The notes: generated by a model not told the origin, from the sequence alone. A stretch of 63,506 nucleotides of DNA, filler included, from Reclinomonas americana ATCC 50394 (GCA_048213135.1; 14 parts of 14 records of this genome joined end to end with filler, not necessarily neighbours in it), one strand, 5' to 3'; positions 1,261 through 57,817 are shown, numbered from the whole stretch's first letter. Program-made: numbers and translations.

Positions 1261-4200
1261 ATGCTTCGTGTGGGCGTCGATGTTGGCGGCACCAACACCG
1301 ACTGCGTGGTGCTGTCGGTGGACGATGGAAAGTGCCGCATTGTAGCGGCGCAAAAGTCGCCGACGACCGATCCGGTGGAGATTGGCGTGATCCGCGCGGT
1401 GCAGCAGGCGATGCGGCAGGTGGATGCGGCGCAGGTGGCCGCCGTGCGCGACATGATGATTGGTGGGTTGGTGGTGAATGGAGCGATTGTGTGTGTGTGT
1501 GTGTTCGGAATAAATTTCAATCATGCATTCCCGCTTGCCAAGGCACGACGCACTTTGTGAATGCCGTTGCGTGCTTCTATCGTTTTGCATACGCTGCGTG
1601 GTGGCATGGCGACTGATGATGATAAGCGTGCAGGTGGTGCAACGCAAGGGACTGACCAAGGTCGCCGTGCTGCGACTGTGCCACTACGCGACAACTGCGC
1701 TGCCGCCGTTCGCGGGGTGGCCCGACGATTTGGCTGAGTTGGTCAATGGTCGGTGGCGATTACCGGCGTGGGTGGAGGGAGTGCGATCGTGTTGATGGCA
1801 TCTCTCTGTGTGCAGGTTATGTGGCGATGCTGCCGGGTGGGTTCGAGTTTGATGGCAGTGTGATTGCGCCACTTGGGGAGGACGCGGTGCGTGTGGCGGC
1901 GCGCGAGGCGATTGCACGAGGGTGCGTGTGTGCACTCTGTTGTCGTCGTGTGGCCACGCGGTGACTCTCAAGCGCTGCGCAGCATTCGAGCGGTGGCGAT
2001 TGTCGGCGTGTTTGCGCCGGTGTGCACCGAGCAGGAGAAGCGAGCGCGTGATCTGGTGCGCGATGAGTACGAGAAGGCCGGTCAGGCCGCTGTGCACGTC
2101 ACCATGTCGTCGCAGATTGGTCGCCTCGGGTTCAAGCAGCGCGAGAATGCCACCATCATGAATGCGTGTCTGCGAGACCTGGCAGTGACCACCATTGAGG
2201 TGAGCGGCGACATTGCAGAGAGAGCTGGATGTTGTTCTCTAATCTGCTGCATGTGCGCAGGGATTCGAGCGCGCTGTCAAGTCCGAGCTCGGCCTCCGCT
2301 GCAACTTGTTCCTCACCCAGAACGACGGCACTCTCATGTCGAGTCAGCTGGCGTGCGAGTTGCCGGTGCTCACCTTTGCGTCGGGGTGAATCCGCTTTTC
2401 CTTCCTCTCCCAGTCGCTCCACACATGCTGACACTCATCTACTGATACACTGCAGACCCACAAACTCCATGCGAGGCGCTGTGTTCCTCTCCGGCCTCAC
2501 CAACGCCGTCGTCATCGACATTGGCGGCACCACTTCCGACGTGGGTCTATTGAGCGACGGGTGTGTTCCACTTGTGCCTCCCACTCTCCCACACATGAGC
2601 CGCTGATCTCGCACATCGTGTCAGGTTTCCTCGTGAGCGTGCACTCGAGGCCTCCGTGGGAGGCGTGTTGACCAATTTCCGCATGCCGGTTGCGTCGCGC
2701 GTGGTCATGCACGATCGTTCTCGTGAGTGCCTCATAGTGCGTGACACGCAGGATGTGCATTCCTTCGGTCTCGGAGGTGGGAGTCGTGTGCGCGTCAGCG
2801 ACACGGGTGCGGTGACAATCGGCCCCGACAGTGTCGGATACCGCTTGGTGCAGGAGGGAATTGTGTTTGGTGCGACTCTTCCTCTCCCTGCCTCTCTCGC
2901 CCAGCATCACGCAGACGCTCATTGTGGCCGAGCATGCAGGGGGCGACACATTGACGGCGAGCGACATTGCGGTGGCGGCTGGATTTGTGTCGATGGGTGA
3001 TCCCACCCGACTGCATGGCAAAGTAACGCCCGAGATGGTGGACAAGACTGTCGACTTGATGGTCGCCATGCTGGAGGAGGTCAGATGTGTGCACGAGAAC
3101 TCGCAAAAAATGACCCTCTCACTCTCCAAACAGAGCATCGACCAAGTCAAGCTGAAGACAGGCGCCATTCCGGTGCTCCTCGTCGGCGGTGGTGCAGTTC
3201 TTGTTGGCAACCGGTCACTCGCCGGAGCCAGTGAGGTTTTTGTGTGGCCATCAACGTGCGATCTGCGTGCTGGCTACTCACCACAGCGAGTGCAGATTAT
3301 TGTTCCTCCGTTCTCCGATGTGGTGAATGCAGTAGGTGAGAAAGGAGAGCACTGTGCTGGCTTATGTGGATCATCATGAGAGTAACACTGCGCGCGTGTG
3401 CGTGTGTAAGGCGCTGCGATTGCGCAGGTCAGCGCCGAGATCGACACGATTGTCGATTTGCCGCCGGCGCAGCACGACGAGATTATCCTGGAGCTGCAAC
3501 GGCAGGTCACGGCACAAGTGGTGGCCGCCGGAGCGCACCCCTCCACCGTCTCCGTGCTCGATGTCGACGAGGTCTGCAGCCGAGCACCACAGATGTACAC
3601 CAAGGATTTGCATCCGTCTCATCTTATCCTGGTACGCAGGTGGCGCTGGCATATGTACCCGGCAACAAGAGGCACGTGCGCATCAAGGCCGTGGGTGACC
3701 TGTTCATGTCTGCCGGTACGAGTACCGGTGCGGGCGCGGACAGCATGCCATCGGTCGCCGTCGAACGAGAGACAGAAACGCACGGCCACAGTGCGTCTTC
3801 GGTTGCCTCCATTGCGCCCGCAGGCAGTACGCAGTCCAGCAGCGGCAGCGGTCCGCAAGCAGCCGTGTTTGCAAATCACAACGTTGTCGACGAGCGCGAC
3901 ATCGAGGTGGACGCCGACGGCATGTGGGTGCTCAGCGAGCGCGATGTCGAGTTTATGACGTTCGGCGCCTCGATTCTCGGGTCGGGCGGTGGCGGAAATC
4001 CGTTGCGTCACCAATCCCTCGGTACCGCAGTGGCGCACCTCTCACGTGCGCTCGTCTCTGTTGTAGGTACTCGTCCAAGATGCGTGCGCTGACTGCACTG
4101 CGCGAGGGCAAACGCATTCGTGTCATGTCGACGCAGCAGCTCGCGGATGACGATCTGGTGATTCCAATCGCCTTTATCGGAGCCCCCACTGCCATGTACG

Positions 4201-5786
4201 TGTCTCTATCGCTGTCGCTTCGTAGCAGGTGACTGTAACCACCGAGAGCATGCAGGCTCGAGAAGCTATGTGCAGGCTTCGAGTGCTCGAACAGCTTCCG
4301 CGCACTGCGAAAGCTGGCTGACTTTGCAGAAAAGGTGTGAGACCTTGTGCACCGCAGCACATCCATTGACCCTTTACGCTCACCTCTTCTTGTGCGCAAC
4401 AGCGTGTCCGCGGTCTGATGCCGATCGAGGTCGGCGGTCTGAACAGCATCGAGCCACTGCTGACGGCCGCTCACATGGACGTGCCGGTGGTTGACGTCGA
4501 TGTTGCGTGGCCGCCACTGTTGTTGTTGATGAAGAAGACGGGAAAATCACGTATCTCTGTGGACAGGGCATGGGCCGGGCGTTCCCCGAGATGCAAATGA
4601 TCTCCTTTTATGTTGCGTTTATGAGACGGGAGGGAGGGAAAGAAGAGACGACTTGCTCACTCACTCTGCCGACGAGCAGATTAATGGACTCGACTATGCG
4701 CCGTGTGCACTGGTGTGTTCTTCCTGCTCTACGGCGCATGTGGTATTGTCACTTGACTGCTTTCGTGCGCCACAGTCAGACGACAAGGGAACGAGCTTGG
4801 TAGTCACGGATGTGCCGTCGCCCAAGGGCCTCGAGAACGTAATGCGCACCATGTTGCGTCGCAGTGCGCTTCCACACCGAAGCCACACACACAGCTCACG
4901 TACTGGTGGCGCAGTACGGTGCACTTTGGTTGCTCTGGCGGCCTCGCCCTGTGCCCACTCTCTGGAGCTCAGCTGAAGCAGCACGGTGTGCTCGACACGC
5001 TGAGTTTGAGCTGGCGCATTGGACTGGTATGCGCGCTCGTGGAGTCCCCCGAGTGCACCGCTCCCATTGCTAATAATCCTCCCCTGGTGGTGGCCGCGCC
5101 AGCTGGCCCACAACAGTCGCGTTCTGAAGCAGGATCCTGTGGAGGCCATCGCGCACTACTTGCAAGGTCGTGTGGTGTTCCGCGGCAAGGTGGTGGCTCT
5201 CGATCGCGGCACTGTCGGTGGCTTTGCGCGTGGAGTGGTGACTGTGGGAGGCGTGGGCGAGCACTGTAAGGAGTCCATGCTGATTGAGATGCAGAATGAG
5301 AACTTGGTGAGGCGAAGAAGCTGTGTGGCAAGGTTCCTCTGGCACAGACTGATTTGTTTCGCGGCAGATGGCCTGGCTCCGTTCTGCGGACGGCACAAAG
5401 ACGGTGGTGGCTTGCGTGCCAGATCTTATTGTGTGCGTCGAGACCGCCACCTGCAGTGCCATTACTGCCGAGGAACTGCGATACGGTATATATGTCGCCA
5501 ATATCGCCCCGTCGATGAAAGCGTACCCATCACCCTGCTGTTGCACACGTGCAGGTCAGCGAGTGTCGGTGATGGTGCTGCCGGCGCCCTCGGTCATGCG
5601 CACGCCGCAAGCGCTAAAGGTATGCTGTTCTCGCTCAACCACACTGCGTGTACACTGTACCTCATTATTGTGTGGCAGGTGGTGGGGCCGGCGGCATTCG
5701 GCTTCTCCAACAGCGCCGAGTACCCAATGCTGCCGGGCCACATGGAGGCCAAGTCGGTGTTCTACCACGACCAGCACCCCAAGTAA
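1261..5786 (+). CDS. Hydantoinase/oxoprolinase A-like domain fused to DUF917 (about 24 introns)
   Basis: N-half motifs GVDVGGTNTD, IGTTHFVNAVVQR, LTQNDGT, TFASGPTNSMRGA, DIGGTTSDVG, GLGGGS. C-half DUF917 motifs ILGSGGGGNP, IGAPT, PIEVGGLN, DGMGRAFPE, QNENL, VPDLI, EELRYG, VVGPAAFG. All joins are GT-AG and in frame; TAA at 5784-5786. Confidence 0.92.
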
Positions 5787-5827: not shown

Positions 5828-6505
5828 TCACAACAGATTACGTTCCAGGGCCCACGCCACCAGGCGATGGCGAAACGCCTCGTTGGTGAGTATCATTCGC
5901 CGCTGCGCCACATCCTCGACGGCCCGAAATAAGCCTCGCTTGTCGTACTGCGCCACATACGCCACCACCATCGAGCCACTGCGATTGACGCCCGCACGGC
6001 AATGCACAAGCGCCCGCCCACCGCTCTCCTTGGCCTTGTCGATGAACTCGCGCACCTCCTCAAAGTGCTTCATGATGTCGTACTCCTCCGTGTCGTCCGA
6101 CGAGACCCAAGCACGCTCCTGGATCACAGTCGCCACCTCGTCCAGATCGTGACCGAGCAGATCCCGTGGTGAGCCCACCATGGAGAAGATGTGCGTGATC
6201 CCCATGCGCTGCACGAGTTCCACATCAAAGGCCTCCGTGATCCCACTGAGATACAGGTGCGGCAGAATCTCAGTCATCTCTCCCACGGGTGCCAGCACCG
6301 ACGGGCGCTGCGGGCGGCCGGCTTCTCGTTGCAGACGATAGCGCTCCTGATCGCTGGCCAGCACCACCAAGTTCATCTGCTTCACCGACTCATCGTAGCG
6401 CACCCATCGTCGACGAGCCTCGGTCGAAAAGTACTCGGCGTCGAACTCTTCCACCACAGACGAAGGCCGTGCTTCCTGCGTATCCTTGCCGTGCTGTCCA
6501 CCCAT
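5828..6505 (-). CDS. Dual-specificity protein phosphatase (intronless)
   Basis: 225-aa ORF with EILPHLYLS, the catalytic loop VHCRAGVNRS and a downstream AY...R...N..F motif. Confidence 0.92.
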   Translation of the reverse strand: MGGQHGKDTQEARPSSVVEEFDAEYFSTEARRRWVRYDESVKQMNLVVLASDQERYRLQREAGRPQRPSVLAPVGEMTEILPHLYLSGITEAFDVELVQRMGITHIFSMVGSPRDLLGHDLDEVATVIQERAWVSSDDTEEYDIMKHFEEVREFIDKAKESGGRALVHCRAGVNRSGSMVVAYVAQYDKRGLFRAVEDVAQRRMILTNEAFRHRLVAWALERNLL

Positions 6506-7755: not shown

Positions 7756-8146
7756 NNNNNNNNNNNNNNNNNNNNNNNNNNNNNNNNNNNNNNNNNNNNT
7801 TAATTAATTAANNNNNNNNNNNNNNNNNNNNNNNNNNNNNNNNNNNNNNNNNNNNTGACCAGTGGTTCATGACGGTCGGTGTGAGCGACGGCTCGGAGAA
7901 TGTTGCGTCGTTATGTTTTGCGCATGTGTTTGCCCGACGTACCTGTCTCTCACGAGTCATCCCGCACAGGCAAACACGGTGCTCCGTTTCCAGCTGCCGT
8001 CTGGCAAGTTGCTGGACGCCAACGGTCTGTCGACTCGCGCGCACGTGTCTCATTTGTGGAGTGTGTCTGTGCTTACAGTGCCGACTGCAGGTTGGACGAC
8101 GATACCGCAGACGTACTCGAATGTCGATGCGTATGTGCTGGCCTGA
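6584..8146 (+). CDS. Secreted protein of unknown function (spliced, spans gap 7756-7855)
   Basis: Hydrophobic signal peptide MRRVSVLLLSLLVLLVAVAVVES. At least 7 GT-AG introns join a beta-strand-rich open frame ending NVDAYVLA-TGA. Confidence 0.7.
7756..7855. other. Artificial scaffold spacer (first of 13)
   Basis: N run + TTAATTAATTAA + N run, 100 nt. The others are at 11865, 21630, 29903, 34142, 37454, 39200, 41003, 42624, 45756, 50499, 54827 and 60661. Confidence 0.98.
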
Positions 8147-8275
8147 ACGGACGGAGACATGCACGCATTCGTTTTTTTGCGCTTGTGCTGCAGAAATTTA
8201 TTTTATGATGGAGGCTGCGGCCCAAGTACATGCTCGCACGTGTACGAGATTTGTGTGCACAGACATGTTGCTGCA

Positions 8276-11200
8276 TTACGAACGCGACGACGACCACAGG
8301 CGCTCGAATTCGGCCCGCCGCCTCCGATACAGTTTCTCCTCCACCGGTAAAGGTGGTGCGCGGCACGGACCACAACAATTCTCGCAACAGCAGCAGCACG
8401 GACAACGCCACCAACAGCACTGCCTTCGACCTGCGCGTCCCACAAAGCCGTCGCCGGCGCTGGAGACCAGCAGTGCGGCCCGATCGACACGCGGCTTGCG
8501 CACCTGCAACATCAGACACGTAAGTGAGTCATCTCTCCCTCTCGGTCACACATCCACAGGAAAGTGCCGCACCAGCGCCATACGCGGGTCGTTTGCCACA
8601 CGCGAGGCTCGCGAACCGCTCGATCCAAACGCCGCCTCCTCGTCTGCTTCCTCGTCGACGGGACTGGGCGGGCAGCACTTGCACGAGAAGCCACTCATGC
8701 ATGCTTGGAGCGGTCTCTTCCAGCATTGCAGGGGCACAATAATGAGCTCCCACAGCAAGCACAGCACAAAGTTGACGGTGAACAGCAGCGCGAGTTGCAT
8801 GCTGTGCGAAGGGTGAGTGACGTGAGCGTTTGTGCGCTCACTCGGCAAGAAAAATCACAAACCAAAAGTTCATCGGCATCTCCATCATGCTGAAAAAAGT
8901 CCGTACATGCATCTCAGCGCCAAACAACAAGAAGAGAACGAAGCCGGAGACCAGAGCCAGCACGAGAACGAGGGGCCCTGCGCGTGCTCTCACTGTGTGA
9001 GAGACTCACGCAGACACAATGCACAAGCGGCAACGGAAGAAGCGCAACAGTTGGAGAACATGGTGCGTCGGTGAGGTCTGGCGGGATTCAGAGGGAACGC
9101 CAGGAATGTGGTCTGCACAGCCGTGGCCAAGAACAGTGTGGTGGTCTCGTATGTCAGGCTGAACTTGTCGTTCGGGTTTGGTCCGAATATCGGAACCCAC
9201 CTGCATGTTTCGAACCCAATCAGTTTCCTCGCCATCACCAGCAATGCTCCATCCCACGTAACCAACTCTGTTCGCGCACGTAAAAGTACGCAAACACCTG
9301 TACGAGGGCGCACAAGACGAACTGGCCCACCAGCGACACGAGGATCGGCGGCGCGGTGAGCGAGGCAGGTGGACTTTTCTTGGCCAGCTTTTTGGAAGCC
9401 GCCGTTTGTGCCACTGTGCACGCACTCAGATGGTGAGCCACAAACACACCAGCATAGCATGTCGTAGCTTGTGTGTGTGGTGCGCAACTGAAGAGAGTAA
9501 TGGGAGTGGCGATAATCAAATCCAGCACGAGATACTCGAGGTCACTCGGCACGGCATTGTCAAGAATGAGAATCGCGGTCGTCATGTACTGCAGCAAGCT
9601 GCGTTTGAAAGAAAACACACGGTCAGCGACATGAAACAGTGGTACAAGTATTCGCAACCTCAATCAATGCACCTATACTCGGCCACATAGCGGAACAAAG
9701 CAAACGAGGCCACCAGGCCAGATCGCCCCTCCCTGCAATAATGCCAGTGGGGTCAGGAGATGGTCGACGCAGACGACTGTCGCCACCAAAGGGGTGCACG
9801 CAACTTGAGCATAGTTACAACAGATCCGATTGAATTGACCTTGGAGGTAAACGGTGCCGCGATGGAGGCCTCGGCATCGGAGAGCGAGAGACCGACCTGC
9901 ACGAATATCGTGAGGACTGCACTGGAGAAGCAATCGGCGATTTTCCGTACACAAAGACGCACATGAGCGGCCTTGAGGGCACTGCAGTCGTTAGCTCCGT
10001 CGCCACACATGGCCACCGTGTATCCCATGTCCTGGTAGCACTCGACAAGCTGCGCTTTTTGCGCTGGGTTGGCGCGAGCAAACACAGCGCAACCAGCCAG
10101 CACCTTGGTTGATCATCATTGTGAGCAAATGCAAAAACAGACAGAAGCAACGGAGAACAGGCGTTCTGCGTACCTTTTGGAAGAACGAATCGCCGTCGAC
10201 ATCGCCGCAATGTGCCGTGCGCAGCAAATGGAAGCACTCGCCAGTCATTGCCAACTCGAATTCACGCACCGCCACGCCCTGCATCGGCTGCACCACGGAT
10301 GAGTCGGCAACTGACCGCGCGACTCGAACGCACGATGCGAGCTGGGCTACCTTTAGATTGTCGCTCAGCACGTTGTCTGGATTGTAGGGATCGACCCACC
10401 GAATGCCGCCGTCGCCAGTGGGCTCACTGAGAAATACCGTACGATCGCCACGCAGGATACCGCACTCACGCGCCACGGCAACAGCGGTGACGGGGTGGTC
10501 GCCTGTTTTTTTTGGTGCACCCAACGCTGTTGAGTGACGCACTCCCACGTATACAAGGCCTGCGACGATGATACCAACCAGTAATCATCACGCTGCGAAT
10601 GCGCGCGTCAGTCAGCTCGGCAATGTGCTGTGTGGTATCCGGCTTGAGCGGGTTGTGCAGCACCACCAGGCCCAGGAACTGCAAGTCGCTCTCCACGGCC
10701 TCCCTGCGCCATGCGTGCATCAGGCAACACGTCGCACAAGATGATGAGATTGTGACGAGTGCGACTCGCACCTGGCCAGCGCTCGTACGCGACGCCAGTC
10801 GTTGCCGAGAGGCTTGAAGGCGTACGCAATCACGCGGTACTGCTGACGCGCGTACTGTTGATTCACGTCCAGCGTGTCGACCGGCACTGCACGCATGTTA
10901 TCGATCGCATGTGAGCAGCAAATCAGAATGAAGGGGCGGTGGCGAGGCAAGTTCCACTCACCAGAGGCTGGTACACACAGTTCGCGAATGCTCTCCGGCG
11001 AGCCCTTCACGCATGCCACGTAGCCGCCGTCGCATGATATGATGGTGCTCATGCGGCGCAAGTCAGGCACAAAGTCGAAATGCTTGACAATCACCAGCTG
11101 CGCACGGGCGGTACGTGAGTGCACCGAAAAGAAACCAGTCACTTCCCGGTGGAAAAAAACGCAACAGAGCGGCGTGACTCTTGCAGCGTGATCTGCGTGG

Positions 11201-11786
11201 CCATTTGGTCTGGTTCAGGGTGCATCCCGCTGACTTCACTCATCGACTGGCCATTCACAAGCGAGTGAGACGGTGTCGCGCAACCACATTTCAATGCACG
11301 CCAGCGAATTGCACGCAACTGCTTCGCTGTTCTGGAAGATCTTGATCTCGAGTGGATCGCCGACCAGCAGCGTGTCGCCCTGAATCTGCGACAGGCTGTG
11401 GCACGACGCAACTGCGTCGGCCAGAGGCCCGTGTGCCAACGACAACTTTTCCAGCCACTCGGCAAAGTCGGCGCCACCGTCCCGTGCACTGCGTGCGAAG
11501 CCAGTTGGTACACAACGAGCTTGCACACAAAGAGCGAAGAGCAACGCACGAGACGGTTCGAGCACCGAGGACGTCGAGGCCGTCGGTGGTCAGCGTGCCT
11601 GTCTTGTCGAAGCAGCACAGATTGACCTTGCCGGCCAGATTGATTCTGTGCGCACGAGATGGCAAGTCGGTCAAATGCAGCAAGAAGATTGCGTTCGAGG
11701 GCGAAGGCTCACCGTGGCGGACTGATGCAATAGATCTGCTTCTTCCTGAGTCGAGCGGCGGCAGCCATGGTTCCCGTCGTCAGTGC
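8276..11786 (-). CDS. P5B-type ATPase (ATP13A2-5/Ypk9-like), C-terminal part; N-terminus lost in gap
   Basis: [27 protein letters not shown] (phosphorylation site), [80 protein letters not shown], followed by transmembrane segments. Confidence 0.93.
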
Positions 11787-11791
11787 CTGCG

Positions 11792-11841
<50 letters not shown>

Positions 11842-12130
11842 GACAACCAACCGACGACGCGGACNNNNNNNNNNNNNNNNNNNNNNNNNNNNNNNNNNNN
11901 NNNNNNNNTTAATTAATTAANNNNNNNNNNNNNNNNNNNNNNNNNNNNNNNNNNNNNNNNNNNNTTTTCTGCTGAATCTATAATCTCGCCCCAAGAAAAT
12001 TGTTAGCGTAGTCATGCTTGTGCCTGCGCAGCGTACTCGACTATCTGCTGTACGAGAGTCGAACTCGGATCCAAGTCGAGTTGTGGTCCAACAGGAAACT
12101 CCGAAATTCTCAGTCATTCTTCATCCTTTC

Positions 12131-43815: not shown

Positions 43816-43888
43816 TGCCGTGGGTGAGACTCGAACTCACAACCTCGGGCTTATGAGACCCACGCGCTACCGGTTGCGCCACCACGGC
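43816..43888 (-). tRNA. tRNA-Met(CAT), elongator-type
   Basis: GCCGTGG/CCACGGC acceptor stem, anticodon loop CT-CAT-AA, GTTCGA T-loop, G1:C72 pair, and a downstream oligo-T Pol III terminator. Confidence 0.95.
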
Positions 43889-45855: not shown

Positions 45856-48800
45856 GTCGAACGAGTACATTCGCGGCGTCGGCAGCGGCGACTCGGCCTG
45901 GTACATGAACGTGGGTGAGTCGGCACCACGTGTGGACATGGCACGGGGCGTGGTCCGTGCCGACAGCGGAGCAGTCAGTCCCGACACCGCATCCGACACA
46001 GCAGAACGCGGCGACGGTGCCGGTGACACGCTCCCGGCCACGCTCGGACCAGGCGATGGTGCCGCATACTGACGTGGCGAGCCAATGGAACTGCCGGCTC
46101 CACCTCGTGGTGTGCTCAGTGGCGAGTAGGGGGCGGCCAGCGGATTCACACGTGGCGTGCTGACCTCGCTTCCGTTCCACACCTCCCCCAATCCCCCCGC
46201 CAGCATGGCGGCTCGTGTCGCCGAGTCCAGCGATTCGGCACCGCGCACCGACGGTACGCGTTCGTGCGAAATCTCGTCCACACTTGGCAAGTCCGGTGGC
46301 GGCGGTAGCTCCGGGGCCCGTTCGACAGCGTTGAGTGCGGCAATGTTGAGAAGCGGCATTCGCACGCGCGCAGTGCCGCTCACGTAACGCGTCGTGTCTG
46401 CCGATACTGGACTCAGCACCGTTTCGGCCGGCTCCGCAACCGCCACCGCCATGTGGGGAAACAGCTGCAGCCAGCGCTCCTCGGCCATGGAAGCCGACAG
46501 ACGCCGTTTCGTTGCCAGTGACACGGGCGGTTCGTACGGGGCGGCGACCGGAATGGGAAGGCTGCGCGGTTGTGAGATCTGGTGGTGACTGTCGCCGTGC
46601 GTCGGCGATGTTGGTGCGCTCTCGTCGATCTTGCCCTCGCCACCTTCGTCCTTACCGTGTCGATGCCGGTGGTGGCGGTGTCGATGATGTCGATGGTGCC
46701 GATGTTCGCCATTTTCCTTGTCGTGGCGATGTTTGTGTCGCCTGCCGGAGCGTGGCGTCTCACCAGGGCTCTCCGTCGGCGACATTTCGCCGCCAGCTGG
46801 TGAGCGCGGCGTGGCCGATGCTGTATCGAGGGCCGTGGGTGACCTCGGCGACGCCTCCTGCACAGCAGCGACCACAACGTGCGGCACGCCAGCAGCTCTG
46901 GTCGCCGCCGGTGAAGCGACAGGTGTTGTCGGCGACGTTGGCGTCGGTGTTGTTGTCGTTGTTGTAGTGGCCGTTGTCGTCACCGCCACCACAGCCGGAG
47001 GAGGCACAGTGTCTTGTTCCGCTGCTCCGGCAGCAGCAGCAGCCTTGGCCTCGGCCTTGAGCCGACGCCGCTCTTCCCGCTCTTTCCTGCGTTGACGTCG
47101 CTCCCTCCTTCGCTGCTTCTCCAACTCCTTATCGTGCTTCGCTTGCTCCTCTGGCGACAGCACGGGTTGCGCGAGGGGTGTCACTGCGGCGGCCATGGCA
47201 GAAAAGTCTCCAGAGGCATTCGGGGAGGCAATGATGATGGACGCGGGCCGCGGAGGCGGCGTCTGCTCCACCACCACGTGTTCCGCCTTACCGCCCTCCG
47301 ACTGCTCCTGCATCTCGGTATGCACCGGTGTCTCCACTCGCTGCTGCTTCGCCACCGGCGACGATGGGACGGCAGTCTTGGACAGACTGCCGGGTGTCGG
47401 CGAGCTCGGTAGTACATCGTGTGGCCTCTTCGACACCACCTCCATAACACGCTGGAGAATGTAATCGAGGACGTACGTGACAGACGAGGAGACTCGCGGG
47501 GAACCACCTGCGGAAGAGAGAGAGAGAGAGAGTGAGACAGAGTGCGAATGGAGGGCAAACATGTGGGGGCGAAACAGAGACCTTTTGGTGTACGTGGTGT
47601 GGGTGAGCCTGTGCTGACCGCGTTCGGATCCGCATCGAAAAACGATGCCGTCGTGTGTGGCGCAGTGCGCGTCTTGTCTGCGCCGTCAAGAAATGTCAGT
47701 GACCACGTGGACACGATGGAGAGTGTGCGAAAAAACAAACAAACAAACCTTTGCGTTCTCTTCTCTTGTTGTGACGCAAGTGCCTCCGCAGGGTCTGCTC
47801 GGGCAGAATCGATTCGAGAATGTCGTTCGCCGCAAAGTTCAAGTAGTACAGCGAGCGGTTCTGTAATATGCGCGCCGCCAGCGTGCCCGCTTGCTCGGGA
47901 GCCACATGGCAACCTGGAGGGAGGAAGAGAGTGAGCTGCCGGAGTGAAGTGAGCGACAAGCGCACCACTCTCACCGGTAAAATCGACATCATGCAGGCTC
48001 TTGTTCACTGCCAAGCAGTCGGCTACGGCTCGCGTACCAGCGTCGCCCAGTGTGTTTCCTGCGTGCATCGATACGAGGAAACAATAAGACGACCCGCTTT
48101 TCTCCGAGGAGGAGGAGATGAAGGAGGATCACCGCACCGGCAAAGTTTAGTGCGTGCACCGACGAGTTTGAGGCCAAACTGGTGAAGATAATGGCGCTGC
48201 CGGTTTCGGAAATGCCACAGCCTGCGTGATCACCACAACAGGCGTCAGCTCTTCCTACGCCCACGATGACTGTAATGCGGGCGACGTAACTCTTGACTGA
48301 GAGCTCTCGTAATCTGCATCCAGGCGTGCCGAGCGCGGAAGCCAGTGACATGGCTCCATCGTCGTCGATAGCAATGTCTGTGGGAGAGGGGCCACGCGTG
48401 TCACACACCCACACGCAACAAGGCGCCTCTGCGGCAACACAGCAACCCGTCTGACGCGCGCAACTGTTGAGATTGAGATGCCGCAACATCGGAATATCCA
48501 ACAAGCGATGCTCCAACAACACCAATCCCAGCGTGCTCAGCGCGTTCCCTGCGCCTCGCTCGTCACACACACAAGCACATTGCATCTCGACTCGCACGCT
48601 CACTCACCTCCCACATCCACGTGTGTCGGGTACCCGTTTCTCGAGACACAGTCGAGCAAGATCTCAAAGCCACGATCGGTGACCAGATTGTCTGCGTGCG
48701 ACCCGCGTGTCATGCGACTATAGGCGCTGGTAGGCAACTGGGGGAGAAGAAGCAACAACAAAAACACAACTGGCCAAGCTACAGCACTCGATCACCAATC

Positions 48801-53929: not shown

Positions 53930-54670
53930 TCACCTTGTCTTCTGTTTCCGTGCGGCGCCCGCCAGCGACAGCATGGACACGACGGCGGCGGCGAGCAATC
54001 GCGCCAGCATGCCGCACATGGCCAGCCACAAGAAACCGTACACAGCGAGGCCACCCTCGATCGCACCTCCGCATCCGAGACGCGCCTGCAACCACGCTGG
54101 CGCATGCTCCTGCAGCAGCCATCCCACAGTCGAAGAAGAAGACGACGGGCACCACGCATGCGCCGGCACTGTGACCGCAGCCGGATCGGCCAACCACGCA
54201 AACGACATGACCGAGCAGCTGACCAGCAGCACCGACAAGAGCAGCTTGAGCAGCTGCGAGACGGCCGGCACACTCAACCACGTGGCCGTCGACATCACCG
54301 CTGCAGCAGGCGTGAGCATGCGAGTGAGTGAGACAACTGCGCGCACACACTTACACACACGCAACGACGCGTGGCCAGATACTCATCCAGCTCCTTGCGC
54401 AGTGGCTGCAGCTCGCGACTCTTCTTCGCAAACTGCACAAAGGTGGAGGGTGTGTTGAGGAGGCGGCATTCGTTCTCCAGCTGTGCCACGCGATCGGCCA
54501 GCTGTCGTACGTGCCGACTCGGACGCTGTGTCGCAAAGGGGTGAGTGTGTGCGATGAGAGAGAGAGAGAGAAGAAGAAGAAGGAGAATGCATCACCTTCC
54601 ACAGCCACAGGCTGAGAGACACGACAGTCTCAGCAGCGACTGCAGCACACGCAGCGCTCCACACAAACAT
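53930..54670 (-). CDS. GET1/WRB-like tail-anchored protein insertion receptor
   Basis: N-terminal TM, coiled coil QLENECRLLNTPSTFVQFAKKSRELQPLRKEL (resembles the GET1 PSTFAxxAKxxR loop), then two more TMs; two introns. Confidence 0.7.
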
Positions 54671-54926: not shown

Positions 54927-57817
54927 TTCCGAAGACAAGCTTCGTCAAGCATGGAGTGCGAGTTGCTGGAGACGTGTACTCCACCCCACACACCTCACCT
55001 TGTGCCGGCAGCGTCGGGCGGCAGCGTCTCTGCACCACTCACGCCACCCTCCGGCGCACACTCGACGCCCACACTTGTCGGCGTCAGCGCCGCCTCGCCC
55101 CCTCGCAACCTCTTCTCTCCTGGCCAGCCGCAGTCGCAGCCCATGTCCACCACAGCCTCCTCATCATCGGCCTCCTCGTCCACCTCAACCTCCCCAGTTG
55201 TCGTACCACCACCACCAGCTTCCTCTGCGCCACCCTCGCAGCACAACCTCTCGCTTCCTGTGCACACCATGGGCAAGCACAGCAACAACAGCGCCTCGTC
55301 CATTCCTTCACCCAGCGCCAGTGCGGCTGCTGGAGGAGGAGGAGGAGGTGGATCACCAGGCGCCATGTCGTATGCCACCCACGCCACACAGTTTGGCCCT
55401 TCGAGTCTGTGGTACACTCCGCGACCTCCATTCCAGCGAGGGAATGGTGGCAGTCCGAGTGGACTGATGTCCACGATGGGAAACAGCGTGGCAGGTGCAT
55501 TTGGAATGTTTGGCGGCGGTCATCGTTCGGGATCCGAGTACTTGTCAGAGGTAAAACACGCAGGGGGTCAGCAAGAAGGGAGCGAGGCATGTGCGCTGAC
55601 TGCTTCTTCTTGTTGTTGTTGTTGTTGATGTGCTCTTCTAGCATGAGGAGGTGTCGACGAGAAAGATTGGGCGGGTGATATTCAGCGTGGTGCTGATCTC
55701 GCTGCTGGCACTCGGTTTTTACTGGATCATGGGCAACTATCTCGTTCCCATGTTGCGTCGCAGTGGTCGATGCGGCAAGCCGAAAAGCGGGAGCACAGTG
55801 CTGACCTCTCCCCCTTCCTTTGTCGTCGTCGTTGTCCCTTCAGTTTTCTGGCGTTCATGTGGAGTCTGGTGACAACTCGCGGCCACAAGCGGATATATCG
55901 CTGGATGCTGCGACTCGACGCACGAGTGTACAACTTGGGCACGCGCCTGTTTGGCCCGTCGACACCCATTACGCGATTCGAGAACCGCATTGGCGTCATT
56001 GATCCGTGCAAAGTCAAGGGATGGCTGTTGTGCACGGTGCTGCTGTTCCTCCTGTGCTGTTGCGTGCTCTCGCTCTCTCTCTCCTTGTATCCCGCACACA
56101 CTAAATCTGCCCCTCCGCTCTGCGCAGGGACCTTCATTTTCTCCTTTGGCTTTGCCATTCTCATCACCTTTACACTGGCCATGGTGATCATGGCGGTGGC
56201 GAGCATGGACCGCGCTCTGCTGGCCTCGCTGACCGTCACCGGCATTATGATTGTGTCCATCCTGGCACTCATCGGCTTGGCCACTGGCGGCTTTTATGTG
56301 GAGGGTCAGCGCATCATCCACTCGGTGATTGCGTACCTGGAGACGGAGCAGATTCAGACGCTGCTGACGAATCACGAGCGATCGCCCATCTACCAGTGGG
56401 CACTCGAGCAATTCGAGTTCTTTGGCTTCAACACGAGTCTCCTCGACCCGGCGTACTTGCAGGATGAGGTGCGTGCACAGCGTTTGGCAAGCAAATTTCT
56501 TCGCAGATGCTTACATGTGGAGGGGTTTCGGCGTGTGCAGGCCGTGGCACTGGCGTACGCTCTGGCCAAGAAGGGCGACATTTTGCTCGACGGTGCCCGC
56601 AAGGGCCTGTCGGTGGCCTCCGACACGGCGTTTTCGATTGTGCTGTTCCTCACCAGCTTTGTGTACTTTTTGCAAGTGAGCGATGAGTCGATCGATGGTG
56701 CCGCCACGGTGCATCAAGCGATATCTCACTCTCTTTCTGTCGTGCAGTTCAACCAACAAGTGCGCAGCGCCATGAACACACTGTCGCCCTTTGACGGTGA
56801 CGTGACGAGGCGCCTGTTCAAGGATCTGGAGCACTCGTGGGTCCGCATCACGCAGGCCTTTGCGCTCATCGGTGCGTTGTGAATCTCTTCGAGTAGCTGT
56901 CCGTGCATGAGCTGACACCGGTACGATATATGGCGGAACAGGCGCGATGAATGCGGTGGCGACATTCATCTCATTTTACTACTTTCTCGATTACCTGACG
57001 TTCCTGCTGCCGGCACTGAGTGCGGTGTTGTCCACGCTGCCGGTATGTGTGTCTCTGTGTGATTTGTGTGTTGCCCCTTCTGCTGCTCTGTTGCCCCTTC
57101 TGCTGCTCATCTTCTAATGCAGGTATTCTCATCGTGGATTGTGTGGATTCCGGCCTGTATCTACTTGGCGATCGAGGGCGCGTACTGGCGGGTGATTTTT
57201 GTGGCCGCCATCCACATTGCTACCACGTGGCTGCAGACGCTGGCCTACGCCGTCATTCCACACACGCATCCGTACGCCATCTCTGTGAGCGTGGTTCTCG
57301 GACTGTACGCCATGGGTCCAGTCGGGTCGCTCGTCGCCCCCCTGCTCCTCTGCTTGGCCACGCAGTTGTACGCGCAGTACGCCGACAGTCGCCCTGGCGA
57401 CGACTCGAAAATCAAAATGTCGTCGTCGGAACCAGTGGGTGAGCTCGGATCGACGCAGGAATTGCCTCACGGTCGCAAGCGCGGCCACTCTGACGTTGCG
57501 TCGCACCCGAGTCTGGCCGCGCCGACAAGCGTCTCAATGTCTTCATGAAAAACTCGCAGGCGGAGGTTCGTAGTCCACTCGGAGGGGGCTTGGACACACC
57601 GAAAAGCCACATTGACGCGTCGGTGCCACCAACGTCGCACCTGCGACGTGGATCGGTGACGTTCAACACTGCCACTCCCGACAGCCCGATTGTGGTGGAA
57701 CAGTACGCCGAGGAGGCTCCGGGTGGCTTTGGCACACCACCGACGCGCGGCGGCGTCACACTGCGGCGACCCACAGTCAATGGCGAAGAGGCCGTGTACA
57801 CCATGCACCGTTCGTGA
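54927..57817 (+). CDS. TMEM245-like / AI-2E-family multi-pass membrane protein (5' end probably in gap)
   Basis: Multiple TMs; IVLFLTSFVYFL and HPYAISVSVVLGLYAMGPVGSLVAPLLLC resemble the AI-2E/TMEM245 C-terminus. Intron 57495-57559 removes the apparent early stop. Confidence 0.68.

Follow-up and report, generated by a model that had tools for sequence, protein, structure and literature searches.

Sequence evidence for a second class of 5' splice sites, GTTGCG(T), among the GT-AG introns of Reclinomonas americana

In 5' splice sites (donors), a G at the last exon base (position -1) and a G at intron position +5 compensate for each other. Roca and Krainer (2009) reportedly described a shifted (+1) register of U1 base-pairing at atypical human 5' splice sites, and bulged-nucleotide U1 registers are said to have been described by Roca et al. 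(2012). In this work, we consider donors that carry the word GTTGCG in 63,506 nucleotides (nt) of DNA from Reclinomonas americana ATCC 50394 (GCA_048213135.1), which we refer to as the window. Donors with this word are called class 2 and all other donors are called ordinary. To judge from the sequence and from protein homologues, GTTGCG(T) represents a genuine second 5' splice-site class of ordinary GT-AG introns. The class is tied to a base other than G at -1, its exon-side profile is moved by one position, and its 3' signals are those of ordinary introns.

Statements below that carry a PMC number rest on excerpts of the papers concerned. The shifted register was experimentally established in human cells by Tan et al. 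(2016), who used an exon ending in CA followed by GU N AAGUAU and the oligonucleotide ACAGUCAAGUAUA (PMC4856993), and it is reviewed in PMC9311317. As in that register, the consensus in class 2 lies one base downstream relative to the cut, with G+1 in the slot of the exon G at -1, and the exon end resembles the normal -3 and -2 positions (a test word ending in CA with the intron GUCAAGUAU there; A or C, then A or T, followed by GUUGCGU here). However, the human cases are individual atypical donors, whereas one fixed word serves about one-fifth of the introns here, and the human core AAGUAU pairs with unmodified U1 at -6.5 kcal/mol predicted and -6.8 kcal/mol measured (PMC4856993), compared with -0.6 kcal/mol computed for class 2.

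A second related system is that of Kenny et al. (2025), in which LUC7 proteins regulate "left-handed" and "right-handed" 5' splice-site classes (PMC11842720). Both there and here, the intron side is loose where the exon side is strong and strict where the exon side is weak; the described system is a single-register continuum, whereas here there is mostly one displaced heptamer, and the split at -1 is nearly all-or-none in the introns validated by homology. Bulged and asymmetric-loop U1 registers, also treated by Tan et al. (2016; PMC4856993), recall class 2 by its extra U at +3 relative to an ordinary donor, but an exon side that stays in frame predicts G at -1, which just 1 of 29 class-2 donors has. 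Finally, U12-type donors likewise have a long, near-invariant intron-side word and do not need G at -1; they differ in the word itself (RTATCCTT rather than GTTGCGT), in the U12-type branch word, which is not found near the donors here, and in the 3' signals, which class 2 shares with ordinary introns. The closest in concept are the human shifted register and the left- and right-handed classes. In the titles and abstracts of the literature matches listed, splice-donor use of GTTGCG or GUUGCGU is not described.

Donors fixed by protein homologues

The window comprises 14 contigs, 1.5-9.7 kb in size, strung together with N44-TTAATTAATTAA-N44 linkers (the first at 7756-7855, and 12 more), across which features are not readable. 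This eukaryotic DNA is very rich in introns, which measure about 55-110 nt, and its GC content is about 50-63%. Our evidence comes from the window sequence, protein homologues and purpose-written scripts. One of these is a spliced protein-to-DNA aligner that combines BLOSUM62, gap costs and the GT..AG rule; GT..AG is the only pair of intron borders allowed, and the program is blind to donor words and to any coding model. Two genes were analyzed with it. In Pfam and profile searches, few other genes of the window had usable homologues. For example, when one exon of the gene at 7856-11864 was used in a profile search, only 10 weak, repeat-like matches came up (best E=3.7e-10), which are useless for spliced alignment. 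In a metagenome scan with a 646-residue exon, 7 loci matched at 35-55% identity over stretches that were short, and none represented a close relative.

The first gene, a fusion of a hydantoinase/oxoprolinase-type protein with DUF917, lies at 1261..5786 (+) and has 25 exons and 24 GT-AG introns of 54-80 nt. Its curated coding sequence, built from the sequence with the aid of tblastn, has 2949 nt (982 amino acids) and no internal stops. In blastp comparisons, residues 4-972 align with residues 21-1071 of homologue P0003 (36% identity) and residues 11-972 with residues 19-1088 of P0002 (37% identity); PF05378, PF01968 and PF06032 are present in the full-length homologues P0002-P0004. Spliced alignment using homology only regained 22 of the 24 introns with P0002, 22 with P0003 and 18 with P0004, and all six GTTGCG introns were regained with each of the three. 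The introns at 5027 and 5307, both with ordinary donors, were never regained. They lie in a poorly conserved stretch where the homologues are gapped, and by homology they appear ambiguous, alternative donors being possible (e.g. 5325, with T at -1).

The six class-2 donors of this gene are as follows, a slash marking the cut. The donor GCC/GTTGCGT at 1566..1572 (+) opens an intron of 68 nt (1566-1633) that was found with all three homologues, and the resulting junction FVNA/VVQRKG aligns without gaps to FVNAVVQQKG of a homologue. CCG/GTTGCGT at 2689..2695 (+; intron 2689-2751, 63 nt) is the sole GTTGCG donor with G at -1; the junction NFRMP/DVHSFGLGGG matches the homologue NFRMPDVHSVGLGGG, from which the 21 residues produced by reading through the intron are absent. 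TCC/GTTGCGT at 4002..4008 (+; intron 4002-4066, 65 nt) was again found with three of three homologues and gives the gapless junction GGGGNP/YSS. Homology alignment also fixes GAT/GTTGCGT at 4502..4508 (+; intron 4502-4566, 65 nt), where VVDVD/GMGRAFPEMQM matches LDADGMGRAFPMLQM, and TAT/GTTGCGT at 4612..4618 (+; intron 4612-4679, 68 nt), where ISFY/INGLDYAP aligns without gaps to FLPFIHGIDPYP. In the latter, the following exon begins with A, which leaves no room for the GT-AG borders to slip by one base. The last donor, CAT/GTTGCGT at 4853..4859 (+; intron 4853-4914, 62 nt), has a gapless junction and was found with all three homologues.

The bases at -1 of these six donors are thus C, G, C, T, T and T, i.e. 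G in one of six, compared with 17 of the 18 other donors; Fisher's test gives p=8.1e-4, and p=1.3e-3 when limited to the 22 regained introns. These are exactly the counts given for this gene in the initial annotation of the window. The same annotation described the other donors of the gene as very degenerate on the intron side. Its four examples are indeed present (GTTTTT at 3236, GTCTGC at 3572, GTATAT at 5486 and GTCAGA at 3080), but as a general description this is too strong, since G at +5 is common among ordinary donors with G at -1, being present in 18 of the 24 backed by homology and in 56 of the 69 in the window-wide set. The one ordinary donor of this gene without G at -1, CAT/GTACGT at 4196..4201 (+), which has a strong intron side with G at +5, was regained with P0002 and P0003.

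The second gene is encoded on the + strand of the contig at 11965-21629. Its core at 13897..16320 (+) has 11 homology-backed introns and encodes an HrpA-like DEAH helicase, with Pfam Helicase_C and OB_NTP_bind matches on the exons. The homologues used are P0005-P0008; they carry PF11898 (DUF3418), and the source of one of them calls it "ATP-dependent helicase HrpA". Each intron is backed by 3-4 homologues except for that at 16008, whose donor is supported by three homologues and whose acceptor (16075) is supported by one, and another whose donor is either 15018 or 15033, with G at -1 in both cases. Past about 16.7 kb the homology fades and the alignments are spurious (introns with one homologue each); this part was left out.

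Among these 11 donors, seven are ordinary and all have G at -1 (13988, 14348, 14530, 15018 or 15033, 15161, 15454 and 16008, all + strand, from the spliced alignments), three are GTTGCG donors with A, T and A at -1, and one is a GTTGAG donor with C at -1. The first class-2 donor, ACA/GTTGCGC at 14172..14178 (+; intron 14172-14244, 73 nt), is supported by all three homologues that span the site, the junction AQPRRLAAAQ/LAKRVADE aligning without gaps to TQPRRVAALSLSRRVAEE; the gene finder described below missed this intron. TTT/GTTGCGT at 14687..14693 (+; intron 14687-14758, 72 nt) is supported by three homologues and AGA/GTTGCGT at 16183..16189 (+; intron 16183-16251, 69 nt) by four of four. 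The variant donor GCC/GTTGAGT at 15595..15601 (+; intron 15595-15652, 58 nt), a shifted form of G/GTGAGT, is likewise supported by four of four homologues and splits a codon within the conserved PEIQRA.

When the two genes are pooled, with three ambiguous introns omitted, the GTTGCG donors comprise 1 with G and 8 without G at -1, compared with 21 and 2 for the other donors (p=3.6e-5); one of the two exceptions among the others is the GTTGAG donor, the shifted form of GTGAG. The proposal that the base at -1 predicts the donor class therefore holds on homology-fixed introns alone.

As an aside, the helicase is of bacterial type and lies at about 12000-17100 (+) inside a eukaryotic, intron-rich gene.

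Donor calls in the whole window

The word itself is over-represented. GTTGCG occurs 73 times on both strands, compared with 48.2 +/- 8.2 times in shuffled sequences, and GTTGCGT occurs 33 times, compared with 10.8 +/- 3.6; none of 100 shuffles reached either count.

To call introns outside the two genes, we used a purpose-written gene finder based on dynamic programming; in the version behind the window-wide calls, the donor term is blind to the base at -1. Depending on the run and the donor model, it recovers 15-20 of the 24 curated introns: 16-18 in a donor-agnostic version, 15-17 with a single position-weight matrix for donors, 19-20 with a two-component donor term without -1, and 18-19 with a shared -1 term. 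The program fuses and splits genes and reads through in-frame introns that are free of stops. After a local strand filter, and with homology-backed calls substituted in the two validated regions, the final set contains 160 introns; 125 of these, and 20 of the 29 GTTGCG donors among them, are gene-finder calls. A score of local flanking coding potential for each GT site was also tried and dropped, the curated donors scoring 9.5-36.7 compared with 12.3 (median) and 29.5 (95th percentile) for all GT sites.

Four introns of the hydantoinase gene are both in frame and free of stops: 2689-2751 (63 nt), 3236-3295 (60 nt), 4713-4775 (63 nt) and 5486-5554 (69 nt). They translate as plausible protein and so constitute an annotation hazard. 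Every run of the gene finder translated straight across two or three of them (3236 always, 4713 and 5486 mostly), and across 2689 only before a term for GTTGCG donors was added.

In total, 29 of the 73 GTTGCG sites were called donors, with A at -1 in 12, T in 10, C in 6 and G in 1. The 20 predicted by the gene finder only are three GTTGCGT donors on the + strand, at 55752 (CAT/), 56059 (GCT/) and 57495 (GAC/), six further donors on the + strand (7193, 7902, 12857, 13661, 23765 and 40487) and eleven on the - strand (351, 723, 9804, 11165, 11319, 48464, 48913, 54365, 58309, 60894 and 61012). Further plausible donors at 9048, 9488 and 36785 would bring the total to perhaps 32-33. The initial annotation had listed 37 (A 16, T 13, C 7 and G 1); its proportions agree with ours, whereas its number is not reproduced. 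Among the 44 GTTGCG sites that were not called donors, 10 have G at -1 (p=0.04 for donors versus non-donors). Class-2 donors were found in 9 of the 14 contigs, and the share of GTTGCG(T) among introns is about 18-26%. This share is alike in two old, conserved genes: 6 of 24 in the hydantoinase gene and 3-4 of 11 in the helicase gene.

The gene finder also called donors with related words, at 48290 (-), 48770 (-), 13170 (+) and 19151 (+). The words called are AGA/GTTACGT, CCA/GTTGTGT, ACT/GTTGCAC and GTC/GTTGCTT, all of which lack G at -1; they are not enriched in the window.

The link between the base at -1 and the donor class extends to the whole set. GTTGCG donors comprise 1 with G and 28 without, compared with 83 and 48 for the other donors (p=1.1e-9; n=160). 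When only introns that have a length not divisible by three or a blocked read-through are considered, the counts are 0 and 18 for GTTGCG compared with 64 and 43 for the others (p=5.5e-7); the length is not divisible by three in 18 of the 29 class-2 introns. False donors could merely dilute the window-wide table. As a trend only, and with the hydantoinase gene absent from the set, the share of G at -1 among the other donors climbs from 0.51 to 0.78 with the call margin, while GTTGCG donors have G in 0 of 18. The mutual information between -1 and positions +3 to +6 is 0.47-0.55 bits in the 35 homology-backed introns, with permutation p<=0.0025 in both sets; the same permutation test gave none between -1 and +7 or +8. 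The association of -1 with +3 to +7 that the initial annotation suggested checking is thus significant for +3 to +6 and absent at +7.

Both the Fisher tests and the mutual information indicate that exon-side and intron-side donor strengths are anticorrelated. Note that the rule at -1 is not absolute, since H/GTRNGT donors (H, a base other than G) also exist: CAT/GTACGT at 4196 is validated, and the gene finder called 20 more. The term "two-mode donor code", under which these donors had been described, is apt as a description, but it overstates how strict the rule is.

On the 3' side, the two classes look alike. The median intron length is 69 nt in class 2 and 68 nt in ordinary introns, and the acceptor is CAG in 26 of 29 and 71 of 83 introns, respectively. 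A branch-like YTVAY motif is present 6-45 nt from the 3' end in 24 of 29 class-2 introns (median 18.5 nt) and in 62 of 83 ordinary introns (median 18 nt), and the commonest such motif is CTCAC in both classes. Removal of all 24 curated introns of the hydantoinase gene yields a continuous, homologue-colinear frame; together with the branch-like word and YAG acceptor seen in both classes, this places the introns in the major GT-AG type.

Register and reader of the GTTGCG word

The exon side of class-2 donors suggests that they are read one base out of register with the cut. Their profile at -1 (A 12, C 6, G 1 and T 10) is indistinguishable from the profile at -2 of ordinary donors with G at -1 (A 28, C 15, G 6 and T 20; chi-square p=0.80), and scoring the class-2 bases at -1 gives a log-likelihood of -35.0 with the shifted profile, compared with -41.9 with the exon background, a gain of 6.9 nats. 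At -2, class 2 has A 13, C 10, G 4 and T 2, which is rich in A and C like the ordinary -3 position (p=0.36; p=0.096 against the ordinary -2 position), the log-likelihoods being -36.9 (shifted), -39.0 (unshifted) and -42.0 (background). G at -1 occurs in 1 of 29 donors, where about 2.5 would be expected from the ordinary profile at -2. This is far below the codon-position background (at least 23% G; binomial p=0.005), but because the scarcity of G equals that at the ordinary -2 position, no special "avoidance" is needed.

The intron side has a similar relationship. GTGCGT is the joint-commonest hexamer of ordinary donors (10 of 131, tied with GTGTGT), and it shares the core TGCGT with GTTGCGT. 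GTTGCGT is G/GTGCGT with the second base altered and the cut placed one base upstream; one G-to-T substitution between the two forms shifts the cut by a base and disrupts the reading frame. T is found at +7 in 20 of 29 class-2 donors, and at the matching position +6 in 31 of 69 ordinary donors.

These observations are consistent with the following mechanism. In early recognition, the U1 snRNP helix would bind both donor forms in a single frame, G-[G/U]-U-G-C-G-U, and later steps would cut ahead of the first GU. In H/GTTGCGT, the intron G+1 would occupy the slot of the last exon G, the TGCGT core would lie one base farther from the cut, and the exon-side preferences would move along with the shifted frame. 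A donor would need either G at -1 in the exon, in which case the intron side would be free to drift, or, failing that, the full shifted word. We infer that U1 is the reader of the class-2 word and that the U1 of this organism is capable of base-pairing to UGCGU, a poor partner for the standard U1 5' end. Recognition by U1 in a shifted register, whatever the U1 sequence, seems to us about evenly balanced.

Several observations weigh against it. At -3, class 2 slightly favors the unshifted profile (log-likelihood -40.5, compared with -44.1 shifted), and the profile-shift test has real power at one position only (n=29). Ordinary donors have mostly T or A, not C, at +4, whereas the matching class-2 position, +5, is C. 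GTTGCGT is the sole enriched word (33 seen, 9.7 expected); its shifted relatives are not enriched in the window, namely GTTGAGT (10 versus 8.4), GTTGTGT (13 versus 14.8), GTTGGGT (4 versus 4.9) and GTTAAGT (0 versus 1.1). The class is one specific word and not a general shift of all ordinary donors. The 46 gene-finder calls with another word and no G at -1 surely include false donors, the finder regaining only 15-20 of 24 curated introns. The one-base shift to which the A excess at -1 had been attributed is supported by the -1 and -2 profiles but not by the -3 profile or by the enrichment of a single word.

The energies computed with the standard U1 5' end, AUACUUACCUG (PMC9311317, PMC4856993), point the same way. 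The mean for class 2 is -0.10 kcal/mol in the canonical register, -0.59 kcal/mol in the shifted register and -0.38 kcal/mol with +3 bulged; ordinary donors with G at -1 have a mean of -6.28 kcal/mol in the canonical register. Against decoys, defined as 506 sense-strand GT sites from the two validated genes, the area under the curve (AUC) is 0.39 for class 2, which is worse than chance, and 0.89 for ordinary donors. Thus the earlier suggestion that a shifted register of U1 compensates for the missing G at -1 fails energetically with the standard end. Because pairing is negligible in every register and only GTTGCGT is enriched, either the U1 of the organism differs or another factor reads GTTGCGT.

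We considered the 16 possible U1 5' ends varied at nucleotides 5-6. G at nucleotide 5 makes class 2 recognizable: in the shifted register, hypothetical ends with this base reach -5.4 to -7.4 kcal/mol. The end AUACGUACCUG gives an AUC of 0.90 for ordinary and 0.86 for class-2 donors and is the best overall of the 16 (0.889), whereas the standard end is the worst but for a few at separating class 2 from decoys. With AUACGCACCUG, the two classes are equally stable on average in their own registers (-7.4 and -7.3 kcal/mol), and an additional A at position 8 brings class 2 to -11.5 kcal/mol. However, decoys also rise to -3.8 kcal/mol with G:C-rich hypothetical partners, so that the altered U1 is a prediction drawn from 35 donors and helped by the strength of G:C pairs.

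A true two-register code, enabled by an altered U1 5' end that has G at nucleotide 5 and perhaps C at 6, or by an extra U1 variant with A at 8 that serves /GUUGCGU, is a tentative possibility. If true, it would be a rare case in which the near-universal U1 5' end co-evolves with a new splice-site class. It would also provide a natural system for how the cut site is fixed after U1 binding, for the co-evolution of U1 and donors, and for the spread of a new donor class in old genes. The shifted register has so far been a curiosity of a few human sites, and here it would be used wholesale with one word. In practice, gene finders that assume one register and favor G at -1 would miss or misplace about one-fifth of the donors here, as in the case of 14172.

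Somewhat unlikely, in our estimate, is a diverged U1 that forms two different helices rather than one shifted helix, i.e. a separate U1 variant complementary to GUUGCGU or a sole U1 changed at nucleotides 5-6. The AUC obtained with AUACGUACCUG for both classes, compared with 0.39 for class 2 with the standard end, and the equal stabilities obtained with AUACGCACCUG argue for it, as do the strict C at +5 and the single enriched heptamer, which fit a Watson-Crick reading of every base. To our knowledge, however, the U1 5' end is nearly invariant among eukaryotes, and an Rfam scan of the window gave a transfer RNA (tRNA) as its sole match and no match to a small nuclear RNA. The gain with G:C-rich partners is partly trivial, as the decoys show, and the inference comes from 35 donors; moreover, with just one diverged U1 the shifted register would remain in use, so that this explanation overlaps with the mechanism proposed above. 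Variant U1 genes with altered 5' ends do exist in human (PMC3561869, PMC10870369), which lends the idea a precedent.

Unlikely, too, is plain compensation with no shifted helix, in which donors lacking G at -1 would require a strong intron side and GTTGCGT would be an extreme form of the left-/right-handed donor types, read by a later or different component. Candidates are the ACAGAGA region of U6 (with the U at +3 flipped out), U5/Prp8, and LUC7- or U1-C-like proteins that associate with U1. We know of no protein that reads a 7-base word at this donor location. The negligible pairing to standard U1 in every register is what would be expected under this explanation, and H/GTRNGT donors (4196 validated and 20 gene-finder calls) also fit it. 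The anticorrelation of exon-side and intron-side strength resembles that in LUC7-dependent classes (PMC11842720). What it leaves unexplained is why the class-2 profile at -1 copies the ordinary profile at -2 (p=0.80) and why moving the common core by one base yields precisely this word.

It is quite improbable that GU(U)GCGU pairs as G/GUGCGU in a bulged register, with the U at +3 (or +2) bulged and the exon side in its normal frame. Although a +2/+3 bulge is a validated human register (PMC4856993) and is the most stable one for a GTTGCG test word with G at -1 (-6.1 kcal/mol), the base at -1 would then face C9 of U1, and G would be favored or at background (at least 23%) rather than present in 1 of 29. 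In addition, the class-2 profile at -1 equals the ordinary profile at -2, and the mean for real class-2 donors in this register is just -0.38 kcal/mol.

A fixed 7-base donor without an exon G also recalls young, introner-like mobile introns that carry GTTGCGT ends, or a diverged U12-like class. Because length, branch motif and acceptor are common to both classes, class 2 does not constitute a family of mobile introns or a minor-spliceosome class, and we regard both origins as very improbable. The interiors of class-2 introns resemble one another no more than ordinary interiors do, local alignments scoring on average 7.7 for class-2 pairs, 7.2 for ordinary pairs and 7.3 for pairs across the classes, and no class-separating 5-mer survived correction for about 900 tests; the GC content differs slightly (0.564 in class 2 and 0.521 in ordinary introns). 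Of the U12 branch word TCCTTRAY there is a single copy in the window (39881, -), where 5.6 would be expected, and it lies near no candidate donor. The class also sits in old, conserved genes at a similar share. The one point in favor of a U12-like class, the word RTATCCTY, which occurs 5 times compared with 1.65 expected (1 of 100 shuffles reaches 5), is probably due to chance; the word matches are at 6480 (+), 20585 (-), 33065 (+), 33671 (-) and 41855 (+).

Least credible of all is an artefact of gene modeling or chance: most window-wide calls are ab initio, but nine GTTGCG donors are fixed by gapless homologue alignment with a method blind to donor words, GTTGCGT is about threefold over shuffles, and the association is significant on the homology-backed introns (Fisher p=3.6e-5).

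Other features of the window

In the contig at 50599-54826, long open frames are present on both strands (677 amino acids on + and 398 on -), with multi-exon scores of 311 and 266, and there is no Pfam match on either strand. The gene finder does not settle the strand, on which the call of a GTTGCGT donor at 54365 (-) hinges.

The contig at 21730-29902 has an extreme strand asymmetry, the GC skew falling to -0.51 and the AT skew to -0.56 near 24-26 kb. It contains low-complexity tracts rich in C and T, and its predicted introns are much longer (180-390 nt). A match to the NOL9/CLP1-type P-loop at about 24877-25050 is flanked by GTTGCG sites at 24872 and 25071.

Weak matches to the mitochondrial-carrier family (PF00153) are found at 36758-37453 (-), 37556-38197 (-) and 38492-39199 (-), on three adjacent small contigs; these pieces may represent one gene family or one gene broken in the assembly. 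The tRNA gene found by Rfam lies at 43816-43888 (-; 67.7 bits) and encloses a GTTGCG site at 43873 (+), which is not a donor. Finally, many contig ends carry simple repeats, for instance (CT)n, (GA)n and CGTAC repeats.

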